62,045 nucleotides of DNA from positions 1-62,045 of the forward strand of contig JAQBUT010000023.1 of assembly GCA_027623195.1 (NCBI GenBank), given 5' to 3'. The notes beneath the pieces are model-generated. The model was given only the letters and a program-made list of their open reading frames with translations. It was not told the DNA's origin and searched no databases. Shown piece after piece: positions 31,049-57,817 of the stretch. This DNA is from Chloroflexota bacterium. Its GTDB lineage: Bacteria; Chloroflexota; Dehalococcoidia; Lucifugimonadales; JADFKI01. Within the stretch, counting starts at the first letter, position 1, and each line of letters opens with the position of its first letter. Made by a program: the position numbers and the translations under genes.

Positions 31049-32353
31049 TTACCAGAAGCGAAGTCTGCGAAATGCCGGTAGGCCCAGCATGAGCAGCATG
31101 CCTAGCTCCACGCGCATCGGGCCCGACCTTGAGGGCGCTGAACAGGCGCCACCGGAAGGCTGTGCCGGGGTCCCGGTGACCACCACTATGTTGGGCGTAG
31201 CGCTTGGGACCTGCCCTGCCACCACCACGGCCGTGTGGGTGGCTTCCGGTTCCACTTCTGTTGCGGTCGACACTATTGGAGCGGGCGTATGTGTCGCTGC
31301 GGTCGCCGTCAGGACATTCCCAGTTGGGGGACGCTGTGTTGGCGTTGCTGCATCGTTGCTCTGCGGCACAGGAGTCGGGGTCGGCGAAGACGTTAGAGTT
31401 GGAGCGGTCGTCGGGGTATTGCGAGGCGTCGCCGTCACCACGATGAATACGATATGTGGTGTAGCCGTGCGTGTTGGCCTGGAAGTGCGTGTCGGAGATA
31501 CGTCGACAGGCTGAGTGAATGCGTCAGGAGTCGGTGAAGGTGTTGCCGTCTGAACTATGGCGGCCGGTGGCAGAGGGGTGACCGTCACCGCGATCTCGAC
31601 GTATATAGGCGTAGGCGTTAATGTGGGCGTCGCCGTAGAGGTGGCGGTTGGCGTTGCCGTTCGGGTACGTGTAGCCGTCCTGGTGGGCGCGACGGTTACC
31701 TGTGGTGCGGCGCCAACAGTTGTGGCAGTTGGGCTTGGGGTAGACGTACGCGTCGCGGTGCGAGTGGGTGTCGACGTTCGGGTTGGAGTCGGCGTGGGCG
31801 TGTCGCCGAAGGTCAACACTATCGGAGTCGGTGTGGTCCTGACCGATAGCCCGATGGGTGTCGGGGTCGACCTGTTGAAAGTGTTAGGTGTCGCAGTTTG
31901 TAAAAGGGGAAAAGAGGAAAGCGGCGCGTCTGGTGAGGCATCGCCTACGCCAACCCTCTCCTGGATAAAGATGTTTACAGGCGGTGGAATGATGTCCGTA
32001 ACGCTGACGGATTCTTGAATTAATAAAGATGACATCAGCACGGCGTCGTCCACGCTGACAGTCTCGTCCACGTTGACGAAGACCAGAAGCGGGATCTGTA
32101 CCTGAAAAAGCGCTGGTGTTGGTGTACTCGTAGGCAATAATCGAAAGATAGGAATAGGTGTTGGCGTGGGAGTGGTCCTTATTTTTATCCCCGCCGTAGG
32201 AGTTGCTGTAACTCTAACCTGGCCCTCGCCTCCTAGCTGGGACCGCAGGCCTTCTTCGCTGCTGAAGGACGCCGCGAAAGCGACACCCGCGCTTGCCAAT
32301 GTTATGGCAGCGACAAGAGCTATGAGGGCTAGTGTTCTCGCCTTAGCGGTCAA
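31049..32353 (-). CDS. Secreted Thr/Pro-rich surface protein with a C-terminal Cys-motif/TM/basic tail
   Basis: Signal peptide ending AFA, many TPTPT repeats, tail SGGACSAP...[18 protein letters not shown]. Confidence 0.75.
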
Positions 32354-32365
32354 AGAAAGAGTTAC

Positions 32366-33112
32366 CTATTCGAAGCTGATTTCAACCGTGGCTGAAATGC
32401 TCTGGCCTTCAGAGACAACGATGGCTGTTGGAAGGGTGGTATTGGTTACCTCAGTTCCGGCGCTTCCTGCACAGCCGTCAGGAAAGCTCACTCCTTCGGC
32501 GCAAGGCTGGCCGCTATGCCGGGTTTTAACGCCATTAATCTGACCATCCCGTTGGGCTGTTATGGAACCGCTCAGGCGCAGGATGCCGTCTGTAGTCGTC
32601 GTAACTACCAGATTGTTTGATGTAAACGAGGCCACCGTGCCTTGAGGCTCGTAAATGATACAGGAGGTAGCTTCGTTGGAACTACTAAGGCAGGGGCTAT
32701 TGGAAAGGGTGCTGTGCCTCAGGTCTATTCCCCAGTAACGCGGAACCATCCGCCGCCCAATAATTTCGGCGATACGTCGAGCACCCGTGCCAAGGAGGGC
32801 GTTCTCGAATTCGTTGTGGCTAACCAGAGTGCCGTCCGCTTCGTGGACATCAATCGTCCAATCGCCGTGCACCTTGATGCCCTCGCCGAAGCCATCAGAA
32901 GCGCCAGCCTTTGATCCGTGCTCCACATCCGCCGGGCTAATTGTGGAATCCTGAACAACCTCAGCAACAGGCTGACTTATGGGAACAGTCTGAACTGGCA
33001 ACGTCGACGCGGCACTCGACCCCCTGTCTATGGAGGCGTAGACCACCGCCAGCGTAAGTATGACGCCAAGAGCGAAGGCACCGGCAACGAGATAGAGACG
33101 CACCTTATCCAT
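32366..33112 (-). CDS. Hypothetical membrane-anchored or secreted beta-rich protein
   Basis: GGAG RBS, N-terminal TM, two close Cys pairs; 12-nt gap to the downstream surface-protein gene. Confidence 0.7.
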   Translation of the reverse strand: MDKVRLYLVAGAFALGVILTLAVVYASIDRGSSAASTLPVQTVPISQPVAEVVQDSTISPADVEHGSKAGASDGFGEGIKVHGDWTIDVHEADGTLVSHNEFENALLGTGARRIAEIIGRRMVPRYWGIDLRHSTLSNSPCLSSSNEATSCIIYEPQGTVASFTSNNLVVTTTTDGILRLSGSITAQRDGQINGVKTRHSGQPCAEGVSFPDGCAGSAGTEVTNTTLPTAIVVSEGQSISATVEISFE

Positions 33113-33428
33113 GTTCAACTCCAAGATGAGATAGCTTTCTTATTAACTATTGAGCGACTACGCTAATGCACCCGATGGAGGACGCCACCCATATTCGCCT
33201 GCTGTCCCCGGGCAGCACGGACTATAAGACTCTTCGTTAACACTGTCAAACGCGGGCTAAAGTGTTCCATCGCACTTGAGGGCGCCGTCTGGCTACTTCA
33301 AACCGCCGAGAATGAAGCGACATAGTTGGGCCTACAGCCTGTCCGAGGGTCTAAGCCGATAGTTTTGTATTGAAATTCTGAAAGGACTAAATCGGGAGGT
33401 CTGGCCGTATATCAAAATATCCAACAAA

Positions 33429-33502
33429 TGGCTGCCCGGCCAGGATTCGAACCTGGGTCAAAGGATTCAAAGTCCTTTGTGCTACCGCTACACTACCGGG
33501 CA
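33429..33502 (-). tRNA. tRNA-Gln(UUG)
   Basis: Reverse complement TGCCCGG...AAGGA-CTTTGAA-TCCTT...GGTTCGAATCC...CCGGGCAGCCA. Confidence 0.96.
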
Positions 33503-52100: not shown

Positions 52101-53360
52101 TTACCTGCCCTTACCGCGTCTAGGAGTGACCAATGGGCCGTGGCCATCGCTGGTGGAGGTTGGCTTCGGGCTAGTCTCGCTCTTTTCGCTCATGCGGCAT
52201 TCTTTAGGTATGTCTCTTCGGTCAGCGTTCACGTAGTCGGCGCAGTCTATGGCTTCGGCCTCCCTGATAGGCTTCCGATCGACGTTCTTGCCCTGATTTT
52301 GCCCTTGCGTGCTGGTGTCGACGCCGGAGGGCCGGATCAGGGGCTTGCCCTGGCCTGGTTTGGGCGCTTCGCCTTCATGGTCATTTCTGCCTTTATTGCT
52401 TAGGCTATCGCGCACCCTAGGGCCGAACTCCACACCCTTGGCTTCCAGCCTCTGGACCTGCTCGCCTAGCTTTTCCAGGCGCTTGTCTACGCTGGCCTGG
52501 AACCTCTCGACCTTGCGGAGCAGGTTACCCACGGCAGGTGAGTCGCCGTGCTGTGCAAGAAATCTATCGGTGAGCTTGGTCAACCTGTCGGCGATGTGGT
52601 CGGCCTTTTGAAGGCCGTGCAGGTTCAAGGACAGAATTGTGCTGGTGGCGTTGTCATGCCCCTTTTTACGCTTGATGAAGATTACGTCGTCGCCCTCTTC
52701 CAGGTCGTCCCCATCATCGATTTCTATCTCTTGCTCTTCGCCATCCTGGCCAAGCAAGTTAAACTTGCCTTTACCTTTACCCTTGTCTTGTGCCTCGGTT
52801 ACCAGACCTCGTCCGTGGGTGCGGACGGCCTCGTTGGGCACAATCATTATCTTCTTCGCAGTCACGGTGCGAATCACGACATCGTCGCCGTCAGCGGCAT
52901 TGGGGTCAACAGGCGGCTTGTCAGCCAATATCGCCACCTTCATGCCGATAGTATCCATTATGGAAATGTCGTCTTGCAGAGGTGAATGCACCTTCACGTT
53001 GTCAGGCACGATAACCCGGACGTTGCCGTGTCGCATGCCAACTGTCATCATCACGCTGGAGGGGGTGCTGCTGGCCACTGTAGGCGTGCTGGTGGCAGTT
53101 ACTGAGTCAACAGAAAGCACTATGCCAACGATTCCTCGGCGCTTCAGTTGGCCCTCTGGGGTTTCATCAGGGGGCGAGGCCTCAGCATTACCTTGCCACC
53201 ATCCCGAGGTATGAGGCAGGGGTATCGCTGTTATAGACAGAACTAGAATTGCAGCAAATAGAACCTTCAAGATCCTAGAGTGCTGGGTAATCTTCCACCC
53301 TTTCATCATCATCCTCCATCCGAATCTGCCACGCTGGGTAATGTCGGCTTTGTCAGCCAA
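52101..53360 (-). CDS. Hypothetical secreted protein (possibly DUF5666/OB-fold-like)
   Basis: Signal or TM segment, beta-rich core, coiled coil and disordered tail. Start uncertain. Confidence 0.6.
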   Translation of the reverse strand: MADKADITQRGRFGWRMMMKGWKITQHSRILKVLFAAILVLSITAIPLPHTSGWWQGNAEASPPDETPEGQLKRRGIVGIVLSVDSVTATSTPTVASSTPSSVMMTVGMRHGNVRVIVPDNVKVHSPLQDDISIMDTIGMKVAILADKPPVDPNAADGDDVVIRTVTAKKIMIVPNEAVRTHGRGLVTEAQDKGKGKGKFNLLGQDGEEQEIEIDDGDDLEEGDDVIFIKRKKGHDNATSTILSLNLHGLQKADHIADRLTKLTDRFLAQHGDSPAVGNLLRKVERFQASVDKRLEKLGEQVQRLEAKGVEFGPRVRDSLSNKGRNDHEGEAPKPGQGKPLIRPSGVDTSTQGQNQGKNVDRKPIREAEAIDCADYVNADRRDIPKECRMSEKSETSPKPTSTSDGHGPLVTPRRGKGR

Positions 53361-53484: not shown

Positions 53485-54105
53485 TTACGGCAGGTAGAAA
53501 ATGGTCAGGACTGCGGATTTCTCTTCACCACTGGAAAGACTGGTGACCACCTCTACGAGGTTGGGGCCTTCTTCCAAAGTCAGCTCTAACTCCAGAATGC
53601 CGTCTTCGTCGATATCCACGAGGTCGTCGTTTATGCTTACGGCGGCGTCGATAACTGTCCTGGCAGTAAGTATGAAGGTGGAAGCCTCCACAAAAACCAC
53701 GTCTTCGGCAGGGCTGATGATTTCCAGGAATAGCTCATCGCCCAGGGCGTCTATGGCTTCTCGCTCCACAAAGAGGTCGCTCTGGTCAGATTCCCCCTGG
53801 AATACTGGCTCTACGAGGCTGTCCGTGGTTACCTGGCTCGAAGAATCGGCATCACTGCTGCCATCCACCGACGAAGAAGGCGCCAGAGAAGGCAACGACG
53901 AATCATAGGCCGGTATGGTCTGGGAAGCGTCTTGTTTTACCACGGGGGCCGTTACGACTCTGTCGACGGGCGCTGGAGCCGCCTCTGCCGGGATGTCGGC
54001 CGTTTTGGAGCCACACCCGATCAGAAATGCCACGCCAAAGATCAGGAGGGCACATATCTTGGATTTTTGTATGGAACCCCTAATAAGCTGGTTCACGGTA
54101 CACAT
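53485..54105 (-). CDS. Putative lipoprotein with a C-terminal Ig-like domain
   Basis: Lipobox LIGC, Ser/Ala linker, LEIISP...LEEGPNLVEV beta-sandwich pattern. Confidence 0.7.
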   Translation of the reverse strand: MCTVNQLIRGSIQKSKICALLIFGVAFLIGCGSKTADIPAEAAPAPVDRVVTAPVVKQDASQTIPAYDSSLPSLAPSSSVDGSSDADSSSQVTTDSLVEPVFQGESDQSDLFVEREAIDALGDELFLEIISPAEDVVFVEASTFILTARTVIDAAVSINDDLVDIDEDGILELELTLEEGPNLVEVVTSLSSGEEKSAVLTIFYLP

Positions 54106-55966: not shown

Positions 55967-57817
55967 TTGGTTAGTGCAATGAATACTTCCTCGAAATTCG
56001 CAGTAATGGCGGTTGTTTTAGGGCTGGTTTTCGCGCTCCCAGGTCTATTCGCGGTTGCAGGGGCTGGAGCCTTCCAGGGAGGCACGGCAAGCGGTAAGAT
56101 TTCGCTCTTACAGTCGGATAGGCCCGTCTACGTTCCCAGGACCACTGCTATTTTCAATATTGAGGTCGAGAACGACGGCGCGGTGGCTCAGGATTATCAG
56201 CTGACTGTTGTTGCTTATGGGCCTTCCGGTGACGAGATATTCCGCAGCAATGTGGAGCGGATAAACTCCCTTCCCCCGGGCGATAGAAGGCTGGTTCAGT
56301 TCCAGTGGGCTACTTCCAGCAGGACCGAGTCCGGCGCATACACGCTTACAGCGGACTTGAGGGATCAATCCCTATTCGATGTCTTGTTCGACACCATAGG
56401 CCTAGACGACGGCGTCAAATTCGAAGTGCAAGCAAAATCTCTTATCTTCCTGTCGGGAGACGAAGTTGATTTCGGTGACTTTCTTCCGGGGGAGACCCCT
56501 GAGATTAACTTATTTGTTTCCAATACCGGAAACGGCATACTGGAGTGGAAAGTAGAAAGCGTAGCAGACGACTGGATAGAACTCGTCACTCCCATAGGGG
56601 ATGCGCGCTAGACTGCAACCATAACGTTGCGCGTGAAGCAGGATGCTCCGATATCACGTCAACTGTCAGGAGACCTGGTAATAACGTCCAACGGGGGAGA
56701 TCGGGTACTTCCCATTACCGGGAACGTTCTGGGAGTTCACAGCGCGAGTCTGGAACGTCTGCGCACAGTTAAGGGACTGTATAGGCAGGGCGAGACAATG
56801 GCCATGGAGTACCTCGTTACCAATGATGGAACGGTGCCCCTGGAATACAGCGCTGCCGTGACTCTGAAAGGTCCCGACGGAAGGATCGTGTACGACGCAA
56901 TGTCGGCAGGGGAGAACGTGCGTCTTTCCCTGGAGGCGGAGGCATCCCAAAGCGTAAACTTCGTGTGGGAAATACCTTTGGAAGAGCCCGTGGGATTTTA
57001 CGAGGCATACGTTGCCCTGACCTACTGGTTCGATCCAGATCTAATATTCTACGACGCACTGAATGACACTTTCATGAGGGCAACGTCCAAACCCTTGATT
57101 AACCAGCTTTTCGAAGTAAAGGAAGGCCCTCGCCTGGTCGTTGATCCGCTGGAATGGGACTACGGGACGGTTCTTGTCGAACAGGATACTGGTAGTGCGA
57201 ATTTCCAAATAACTAACTCTGGCGGGGCAACTCTGGAATGGGAACTGGTTAGCTGGCCGGACTGGATTATGATAGCCAAGCCTACCATTTTCACGAACAT
57301 AGGCGGTGGCAATATTCTGGCCAGGGTTCGACCGTCGTTGACGCCGGACGATTATAGCGGTGCAATCAGAGTCGAATCTAACGGTGGTGATATTTCTCTT
57401 CCCATATCAATACGCATAACTTCGCCTTCGACTCCCACACCTTTGCCCACTGCTACTGTGGAGCCAACGGCTACGCCTCCCCCTATTGCCCCTACTGCCA
57501 CGCCTGCGCCTCAGTCGCCCACCGCCACTCCCAGGGCGAACAGACCCGCACCTGCGCCTCCAACAAACACACCCGTGAACGCCACGTCTACGGCCGTTCC
57601 AGCAAACGCTAGGCCTGCTGCGACGGCCACGCCAGTTCTGATCGCCCTGGCCACGGTGGAATCAACGCCGGGGTCTTCTGGCGTCGGTTGTAGCGTGCCG
57701 TTGGGGAACGTCTCATTGGCGTCAGGTCTGGTCAATGGGCTGCTTCTCGTTGCGCCTCTGGGGCTGATAGCAGGCGCCAGGTATGGTAGGCGCCGAAGCA
57801 AACATTCGTCCAAGTAA
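55967..57817 (+). pseudogene. Cell-surface protein with tandem Ig-like/BACON-like domains, Pro/Thr stalk and Cys-motif C-terminal anchor, interrupted by an in-frame TAG at 56609-56611
   Basis: ORFs 55967-56611 and 56627-57817 share one frame. The TAG falls inside a domain whose second copy (WDYG...TNSGG.TLEW...SNGG) is intact downstream. Confidence 0.75.

Follow-up and report, generated by a model that had tools for sequence, protein, structure and literature searches.

The window analysed here, the 62,045 nucleotides of contig JAQBUT010000023.1, contains two genes for secreted proteins that end in a Cys-type C-terminal tail. Carrier 1 (31049..32353, minus strand) encodes a secreted low-complexity protein of 434 residues, whose richness in Thr and Pro (86 and 62 residues, respectively) and signal-peptide-like start are as the sequence-only reading had described them. 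Its predicted signal peptide (32273..32353, minus strand), judged by eye, has a basic start, a hydrophobic core, and an AFA end. Scans against Pfam and NCBIfam gave no match for the protein, and a homologue search found no close relative, returning two weak low-complexity matches only. Copy 1 of the tail (31049..31156, minus strand) makes up the last 35 residues of the open reading frame, just where it had first been placed, and belongs to a short subtype consisting of a GGAC motif, a spacer, a 12-residue apolar run, and RRLR. The conserved Cys codon (residue 404; 31142..31144, minus strand) is the predicted lipidation site, and the short hydrophobic segment (31070..31105, minus strand) contains an internal Gly and Pro. 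An Atlas search with the tail reached a best score of 0.83, which we treat as a lead only. Twelve bases upstream of carrier 1, on the same strand and just downstream of tRNA-Gln (33429–33502, minus strand), lies a gene for a 252-residue protein (32366–33124, minus strand) with a membrane segment at its N-terminus, for which no family scored above the cut-off; this gene and carrier 1 may form one operon at a tRNA-flanked variable site.

Carrier 2 (55967..57817, plus strand) is a 616-codon gene for a secreted protein with a Pro/Thr stalk, interrupted in this strain by an in-frame TAG (56609..56611, plus strand) that splits the signal-peptide half from the tail half. Its repeats are Ig/BACON-like (weak family matches, all below the cut-off), and it is a paralog of the carrier on contig C20; carriers 1 and 2 show no BLAST similarity to each other, which bears out their original description as unrelated bodies. 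The reading frame ending at 57817 has the C-terminus SSGVGCSVP-LGNVSLASG-LVNGLLLVAPLGLIAGARYGRRRSKHSSK, and copy 2 of the tail (57674..57817, plus strand; Cys codon 57689–57691) is of a long subtype whose helix contains Asn and Pro. The claim that both carriers have a signal peptide agrees with the prediction for carrier 1 but does not hold for carrier 2 as assembled, where the frame comprises the 3′ half only and the signal peptide lies upstream of the TAG. The same-genus ortholog of carrier 2 is continuous across the stop site and 67–71% identical on both sides of it. Position 56609 is G in contigs from two runs of a second study, and the stop is kept in two runs of the likely source study; we therefore take the stop to be a strain-specific allele. 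Judged from these contigs and the ortholog, the gene that carries copy 2 is disrupted in this strain but whole in its close relatives. At 57815–57817, the second-study contigs also differ in the stop codon of carrier 2, where two changes would lengthen the protein by a few residues. Nearby, two secreted-looking proteins without a tail and without an assigned function are encoded on the minus strand (52101–53360 and 53485–54105), one of them with a weak Ig-like Pfam match.

The tail recurs throughout the genome (3.0 Mb, 87% complete), whose host is likely a SAR202-type member of the Dehalococcoidia; the datasets that carry the sequence are aquatic and estuary metagenomes, with no RNA dataset among those listed. 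A pattern scan of 22,261 six-frame ORFs gave ten candidates, six of which are long proteins with Pro/Thr stalks, namely carriers 1 and 2 and the carriers on contigs C16, C20, C37, and C60. In a leave-one-out analysis over 22,220 six-frame ORFs, each of the six tails ranked first among the non-seed tails (E-values from 2.5e-8 to 0.008). Iteration of the in-genome HMM at E<0.01 drifted, absorbing two spurious ORFs, and the model was restricted to the six; a broad model that contains them scored all six at E≤2e-9, with the next tail at 0.14 and the best reversed tail at 0.21. The resulting consensus is G-G-x-C, a spacer, an Asn, Asp, or Glu mostly 14–15 residues past the Cys, a Leu-rich run with Pro, and a basic cluster, the last being weak in the C60 copy. 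The Cys is followed by the basic cluster after 23–25 residues in the short subtype, copy 1 included, versus 28–33 otherwise, and Pro lies within the helix in 31 of 32 Asn-anchored tails.

The six-sequence model also finds the tails of relatives, with the Cys in all 30 loci read. A 28-sequence model matched 102 of 200 genomes of the order and 4 of 300 genomes of the class at E≤0.001, and a 44-sequence model that includes divergent tails matched 118 of the 200 at E≤1e-4 and 128 at E≤0.003, all of these counts being lower bounds, since only 23–35 candidates per genome were scored, and the E-values being inflated because seeds were drawn from many of the searched genomes. Up to seven tail matches per genome were seen in the order search. 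In the class draw, the 44-sequence model at E≤0.003 matched 32 of 300 genomes, 24 of them outside the order, a minority of these weak matches having been inspected by reading. They include 12 of 21 genomes of one other family. In family f28, genus g39, a weak match falls in an approximately 880-residue open frame in 12 of 20 genomes; the one match read there is a short-type Cys tail.

Among 1.84 billion protein cluster representatives, 204 clusters match the tail. In the best 150 of these, the match ends within 15 residues of the C-terminus in 142 and the Cys is retained in 148, with two Cys in one; it is likewise invariant in alignments A2 and A6. Gly stands at position −2 of the Cys in 137 of the 148 copies, Gly-Gly directly precedes it in 127, and Pro is the commonest residue at −5 (40 copies). 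The exact motif first proposed, G-x-[AG]-C-S-x-P, was overfitted, as it fits 6 of these 148 copies, and the conserved core is G-G-x-C. The 111 matches of at least 200 residues fall into 15 unrelated groups, with domains that include GLUG, FG-GAP, NHL, PKD, cohesin, peptidase MA, and others, and a crude test found a hydrophobic N-terminus in 80 of the 109 carriers that start with Met. A peptidase MA family carrier with a short-type Cys tail (C16:5152-6621, L004; L197:3948-5405) keeps both tail and upstream neighbour in two distant families and represents a second conserved client. One database protein, P0125 (806 residues), bears the tail twice, once internally, and probably consists of two fused or mis-joined genes; its body resembles proteins of other phyla by weak Atlas scores. 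A similar tag may exist outside Chloroflexota.

The sequence-only reading had allowed that the motif might not recur, that the Cys might vary, or that an existing CTERM model might already cover the signal. None of this came about: there are six copies in the genome and many in related genomes, the Cys is kept in 148 of 150 matches, and none of the six tails is named by an NCBIfam model. Copy 1 reached 15.7 bits on MYXO-CTERM (TIGR03901; cut-off 20), on which the other five copies had no match, and the C16 copy reached 19.4 on VPDSG-CTERM (cut-off 22). One relative's tail passes MYXO-CTERM at 22.1, and among 44 diverse tails at E≤0.05, seven match MYXO-CTERM and three match JDVT-CTERM. A literature search, with most subscription papers outside its coverage, found no description of such a tag in Dehalococcoidia, and the accessible part of the Haft preprint (10.1101/2023.06.07.544157) makes no mention of Chloroflexota.

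The core client of the tail became apparent from its gene neighbourhoods. In 17 of 20 loci chosen across families, the tail ends a protein of 350–540 residues with repeated small domains, and its gene comes directly after one for a secreted protein of 800–1,100 residues. In the present genome this pair lies at C37:77563-81815 (L006), where a large acidic secreted protein (991 residues, two GWNL-type C-terminal repeats) is followed by the stalked, tail-bearing protein; Pfam matched neither the large protein nor its partner. SAR202 and related Dehalococcoidia are reported to have no peptidoglycan and to depend on an S-layer instead (PMC11994032, PMC10284905; PMC5395668 also bears on this), and for this reason we infer that the large protein and its stalked partner are a candidate two-component S-layer, that is, an S-layer and its tether. 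A complex prediction for the C-terminal part of the large protein with the anchor head scored 0.46 versus 0.02 for the best control, with a partner pLDDT of 77–78 and at least 80% of contacts agreeing between runs; we set it aside as evidence because in calibration the passes at or below 0.60 included the two false ones as well as those from 18 of the 157 true complexes.

We searched for homologues of this anchor in the 45 genomes missed by the 28-sequence model, found one in 36, and read 30 of the loci. The ends comprised seven divergent Cys tails, nine plain helices, six LPxxG-like ends, and eight with no tail, another domain, or a cut. The large partner gene lay within the flank in 13 of the 30 loci (five Cys, six plain, one LPxxG-like, one cut). 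The label LPxxG-like was assigned by eye on the strength of what we take to be sortase motifs. The three kinds of end differ in the strength of their helix: the median apolar run is 14.5 residues in Cys tails (n = 22) versus 26 in plain (n = 9) and 21.5 in LPxxG-like ends (n = 6), and although the conserved Asn shortens the apolar run by definition, the best 19-residue hydropathy agrees (1.73 versus 2.83 and 2.36). In all six in-genome copies the run is 12–14 residues. This exchange of tails on homologous proteins, together with the far shorter Cys-type helix, fits a processed sorting signal, and so weak a helix would fit a temporary stop-transfer element with a second anchor. The LPxxG-like homologues (L142, L147, L148, L158, L141, L162) have motif, helix, and basic cluster, and of five of their genomes tested all but one have a sortase; they are possible sortase substrates in wall-less cells. 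Another stalked protein of this genome (C53:13927-14862) ends in VPASG, a helix, and a basic cluster (PEP-CTERM-like by eye), and its homologues in family f12 bear the Cys tail.

As had been noted from the outset, no candidate processing enzyme lies in the window; the genome encodes two rhomboids, one sortase, and one Lgt, all elsewhere. Lgt was present in five of five genomes tested and is the published guess for the lipid donor of MYXO-CTERM. According to the Haft preprint (bioRxiv 10.1101/2023.06.07.544157), each of the four Cys tags known so far has a CPBP protease as its partner, and according to PMC11980579, Cys residues are required for MrtX cleavage and anchoring of TraA. Neither a CPBP protease (PF02517) nor an exosortase (PF09721) was matched in this 87% complete genome. 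One CPBP ortholog per genome is typical (33 of 41 relatives and 148 of 200 order genomes), and in a same-genus genome the CPBP gene lies approximately 1.2 kb past the point where synteny with contig C15 meets the contig end; the absence here is therefore probably an assembly gap.

Across the order, CPBP is found in 100 of 118 tail-bearing genomes and in 48 of 82 without a detected tail. Rhomboids are of two types here, of which the GluP-type, with a TPR (contig C24 in this genome), follows the tail, with 94 of 118 tail-bearing genomes versus 12 of 82 others, a lead that arose from a self-chosen 61-genome panel overlapping the 200. The corresponding odds ratios, 3.9 for CPBP and 23 for the rhomboid, are overstated because related genomes are not independent and no species tree was used. 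One or the other enzyme is present in 116 of the 118 and in 50 of the 82 (166 of 200 overall). The 18 tail-bearing genomes that lack CPBP include four of four single-contig, 95–97% complete genomes of one family (rechecked with PF02517), and 16 of the 18 have the GluP-type rhomboid. Families without CPBP include f107, f95, f111, f4, and f15. In G353 (99% complete, tail-bearing), a weak PF02517 match was discarded as an UppP-like sequence by eye. CPBP also occurs without the tail, in family f7 (CPBP 10/10, tail 0/10) and in f14. On the Mrt_core model (NF040914), eleven CPBPs from relatives score 30–39 bits (cut-off 100), and they fall far below every myxosortase cut-off. The CPBP tree was too poorly resolved to stand in for a species tree. 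Three genomes of genus g4 (L040, L042, L047) have two divergent CPBP paralogs in tandem.

In the GluP-type rhomboid, the motifs of the catalytic Ser and His are intact. It forms a group separate from the other type, and among the 300 genomes of the class draw it gave a single match outside the order. It is missing from 24 of the 118 tail-bearing genomes, mostly of f21, f23, and f106, plus f9, f99, and two single genomes; f21 and f23 have canonical tails and no such rhomboid (0/10 each), and two tail-bearing genomes of other orders, their tails read, have CPBP and no GluP-type rhomboid. Conversely, the rhomboid occurs without a convincing tail in f94 (3/3) and f93 (2/2). A P4/P1/P2′ motif of the rhomboid type, searched for with a regular expression that approximates the one in PMC2941825, showed no enrichment in the spacer, with 35 of 59 against 39 in shuffles; the same source reports that helix-destabilising residues aid rhomboid cleavage.

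Three other candidates were rejected. Of the genomes tested, ten with the tail and ten others, the sortase occurs in 8 and 7, respectively, and so does not track the tail; the STE24-like CAAX protease was found (PF16491) in 14 of the 61 panel genomes and in none of the four f107 and four f111 genomes tested, and a PrsW-type protease in one of five genomes. G353, which has two tails, was read nearly whole, and 73 multi-helix proteins among 242 candidates were scanned with Pfam; this gave a rhomboid, two M50, two M48, and an A24 peptidase as well as Lit, and no new protease family, several of the 73 having no family and not being profiled across genomes. No protease recurred among the listed neighbours of the 20 chosen loci. 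No protease family among those tested strictly co-occurs with the tail. The sortase of this genome is intact (C17:22000-22977, L003) and there is no clear LPxTG substrate in the same genome; sortases occur in 15 of 20 genomes tested of a lineage reported to lack peptidoglycan.

Taken on its sequence features, the tail behaves as a Cys-type C-terminal sorting signal that falls outside every modelled family. Of the criteria that the Haft preprint sets for such signals, C-terminal position and several copies per genome are found here (142 of 150 within 15 residues of the end; six copies), as are motif, hydrophobic segment, basic cluster, and signal peptides on unrelated carriers (15 groups) and homologues without the signal or with another one (nine plain, six LPxxG-like, seven Cys in 30 loci). 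For a strict cognate protease, the counts are CPBP in 100, rhomboid in 94, and either in 116 of 118 tail-bearing genomes. The proposal that this lineage has its own sorting system is accordingly upheld as to most of the published features of a tripartite signal, but a dedicated system goes too far, because the architecture is that of known Cys-CTERM signals, one relative passes MYXO-CTERM, and no protease strictly co-occurs. The signal class is known (MYXO, JDVT, Synerg, and CGP), and the tail is a variant of it.

With MYXO-CTERM and its myxosortases MrtX, MrtC, and MrtP, the tail shares a Gly-rich motif with an invariant Cys, a hydrophobic helix, an Arg cluster, and many unrelated carriers per genome, and MYXO-CTERM is the best-scoring model for copy 1. 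MYXO-CTERM itself has a helix without Pro or charged residues and frequently a second Cys, whereas the tail has a single Cys, a 10–15 residue spacer, and a conserved Asn, Asp, or Glu plus Pro in the helix; its host is monoderm rather than one of the Myxococcota or Bradymonadales, and the CPBPs of relatives lie far below the Mrt cut-offs and are gone from whole tail-bearing families. JDVT-CTERM (NF033191), with MrtJ, has in common a single Cys, a Leu-rich helix opened by a polar residue, and an Arg cluster, but its DP motif about nine residues past the Cys is present in only 3 of 148 tails here, and the tail has several clients per genome and no adjacent CPBP gene was seen; the CPBPs score 34–48 bits on MrtJ (cut-off 75). 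Synerg-CTERM (TIGR04564), with MrtS, likewise has a Ser/Gly cluster ending in one Cys, a conserved Pro, and a Leu-rich helix, but no spacer between Cys and helix, whereas the distance from the Cys to the Asn, Asp, or Glu is mostly 14–15 residues here; TIGR04564 had no match in any scan, and MrtS scores were 40–54 bits (cut-off 130).

GlyGly-CTERM and rhombosortase (TIGR03902) resemble the present case in the Gly-Gly before the helix, the Arg cluster, and a partly co-occurring rhomboid subfamily. Here, however, the Gly-Gly does not abut the helix, an invariant Cys and a spacer are added, and the rhomboid is GluP-type with a TPR tail, scores 52.2 bits (cut-off 84), and co-occurs less than strictly; TIGR03501 gave no match in the NCBIfam scans of the tails. 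Archaeal PGF-CTERM and ArtA provide a working analogy, since there too a cell without a wall would have parts of its coat anchored by lipid; in this analogy the S-layer identity on our side is inferred. A stalked small partner encoded beside a large surface protein is, we presume, also a likeness to the two-component SlaA/SlaB S-layer. The tag differs from PGF-CTERM in that it sits on the small partner, not the large protein, and the genome has no exosortase or archaeosortase match.

The recurrence of the tail, its C-terminal position, invariant Cys, unrelated carriers, exchange on homologues, and unusually short helix can be read directly from the sequences; lipidation and cleavage are proposed by analogy with MYXO-CTERM and MrtX. 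We lean towards a sorting signal in which the Cys receives a lipid and the helix is removed. Once the protein is exported, its short helix and basic cluster would halt it in the membrane, its invariant Cys on the outer face would gain a lipid, and an intramembrane protease would cut off the weak helix, leaving the protein at the surface by its lipid. The simplest fit would be that the single-copy CPBP is the original enzyme and that the GluP-type rhomboid serves those lineages from which CPBP was lost. Given processing, CPBP has somewhat less than an even chance of being the primary enzyme, another or a non-specific protease is possible but unlikely, and the rhomboid is rather unlikely in that role. 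Because the gene of the core client, a stalked protein of two domains, directly follows a large acidic S-layer-like gene, the tag would likely also serve to keep a protein coat in place on cells that reportedly have no peptidoglycan. The most specific version of these ideas, in which a Cys tag in wall-less Dehalococcoidia lipid-anchors a two-component S-layer tether and has a GluP-type rhomboid as its protease instead of CPBP, at least in CPBP-loss lineages, we consider improbable as a whole.

Polar residues in helices promote self-association, and the tail could instead be a permanent, uncleaved membrane anchor with its Cys in a disulfide or acylated and its Asn/Pro helix driving oligomerisation of the stalk. 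The absence of a strictly co-occurring protease family and the nine homologues that do with a plain helix favour such an anchor, as does the monoderm envelope reported in PMC10284905, which leaves no outer membrane to cross and may make cleavage needless. We nevertheless find it unlikely, because 12–14 apolar residues in all six copies make a poor sole permanent anchor, and because the same Cys–helix spacing recurs on 15 unrelated groups, a peptidase included, which a homo-oligomer contact would not need. Within the processed model, the C24 GluP-type rhomboid could be the cognate enzyme in the manner of rhombosortase, cutting near the top of the helix, guided by Gly-Gly or by an Asn/Pro-destabilised helix. 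Its distribution (94/118 versus 12/82, odds ratio 23 versus 3.9 for CPBP; one match outside the order; 16 of 18 CPBP-less tail-bearing genomes), its intact catalytic motifs and separate grouping, the Gly-Gly before the Cys in 127 of 148 copies, and the aid that helix-destabilising residues give to cleavage (PMC2941825) all argue for it, but whole families have canonical tails without it, f94 and f93 keep it without a convincing tail, it may simply mark a subclade of non-independent kin, its 52 bits on the rhombosortase model fall short of the cut-off of 84, and the spacer motif test was negative; we hold this assignment to be improbable as well.

The genome's one intact sortase, which has no clear LPxTG substrate, might be supposed to read x-P-x-G-G before the Cys like LPxTG, and Pro is indeed commonest at −5 (40 of 148). 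Such processing is very improbable, since the sortase does not track the tail (8/10 versus 7/10) and a cut before the Cys would discard the sole invariant residue. That the similarity reflects inherited paralogy, or compositional convergence of a Pro/Thr stalk and a helix without signal function, gains something from the 71 network nodes in one related group and from the shared domains of three of the six carriers. An invariant Cys with fixed spacing over 15 unrelated groups and the empty reversed-tail control speak against it, and at the level of sequence the leave-one-out analysis, carrier grouping, and reversed-tail control largely refute this already, so that we rate it as very improbable too.

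We found no account of how the surface proteins of SAR202 and related Dehalococcoidia are held on. In one order, more than half of the sampled genomes have a surface proteome marked by the tag described here, and its HMM is ready for use in annotation. This work adds the order-wide profile, the swapping of tails, the shortness of the helix, the finding that whole tail-bearing families have lost CPBP, and a lead on the rhomboid. With a lipid-anchored and cleaved tag, the Cys-CTERM class would come to include a monoderm bacterium, in which cleavage cannot concern the crossing of an outer membrane. Whole families with a canonical tag and no CPBP protease put the published pairing of Cys tags with CPBP enzymes to the test, and they bear on the question of which enzyme lipidates the Cys. 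If the rhomboid reading were true, no earlier Cys-CTERM signal would have had a rhomboid as its partner, and the GluP-type rhomboid would gain a set of physiological sorting substrates.
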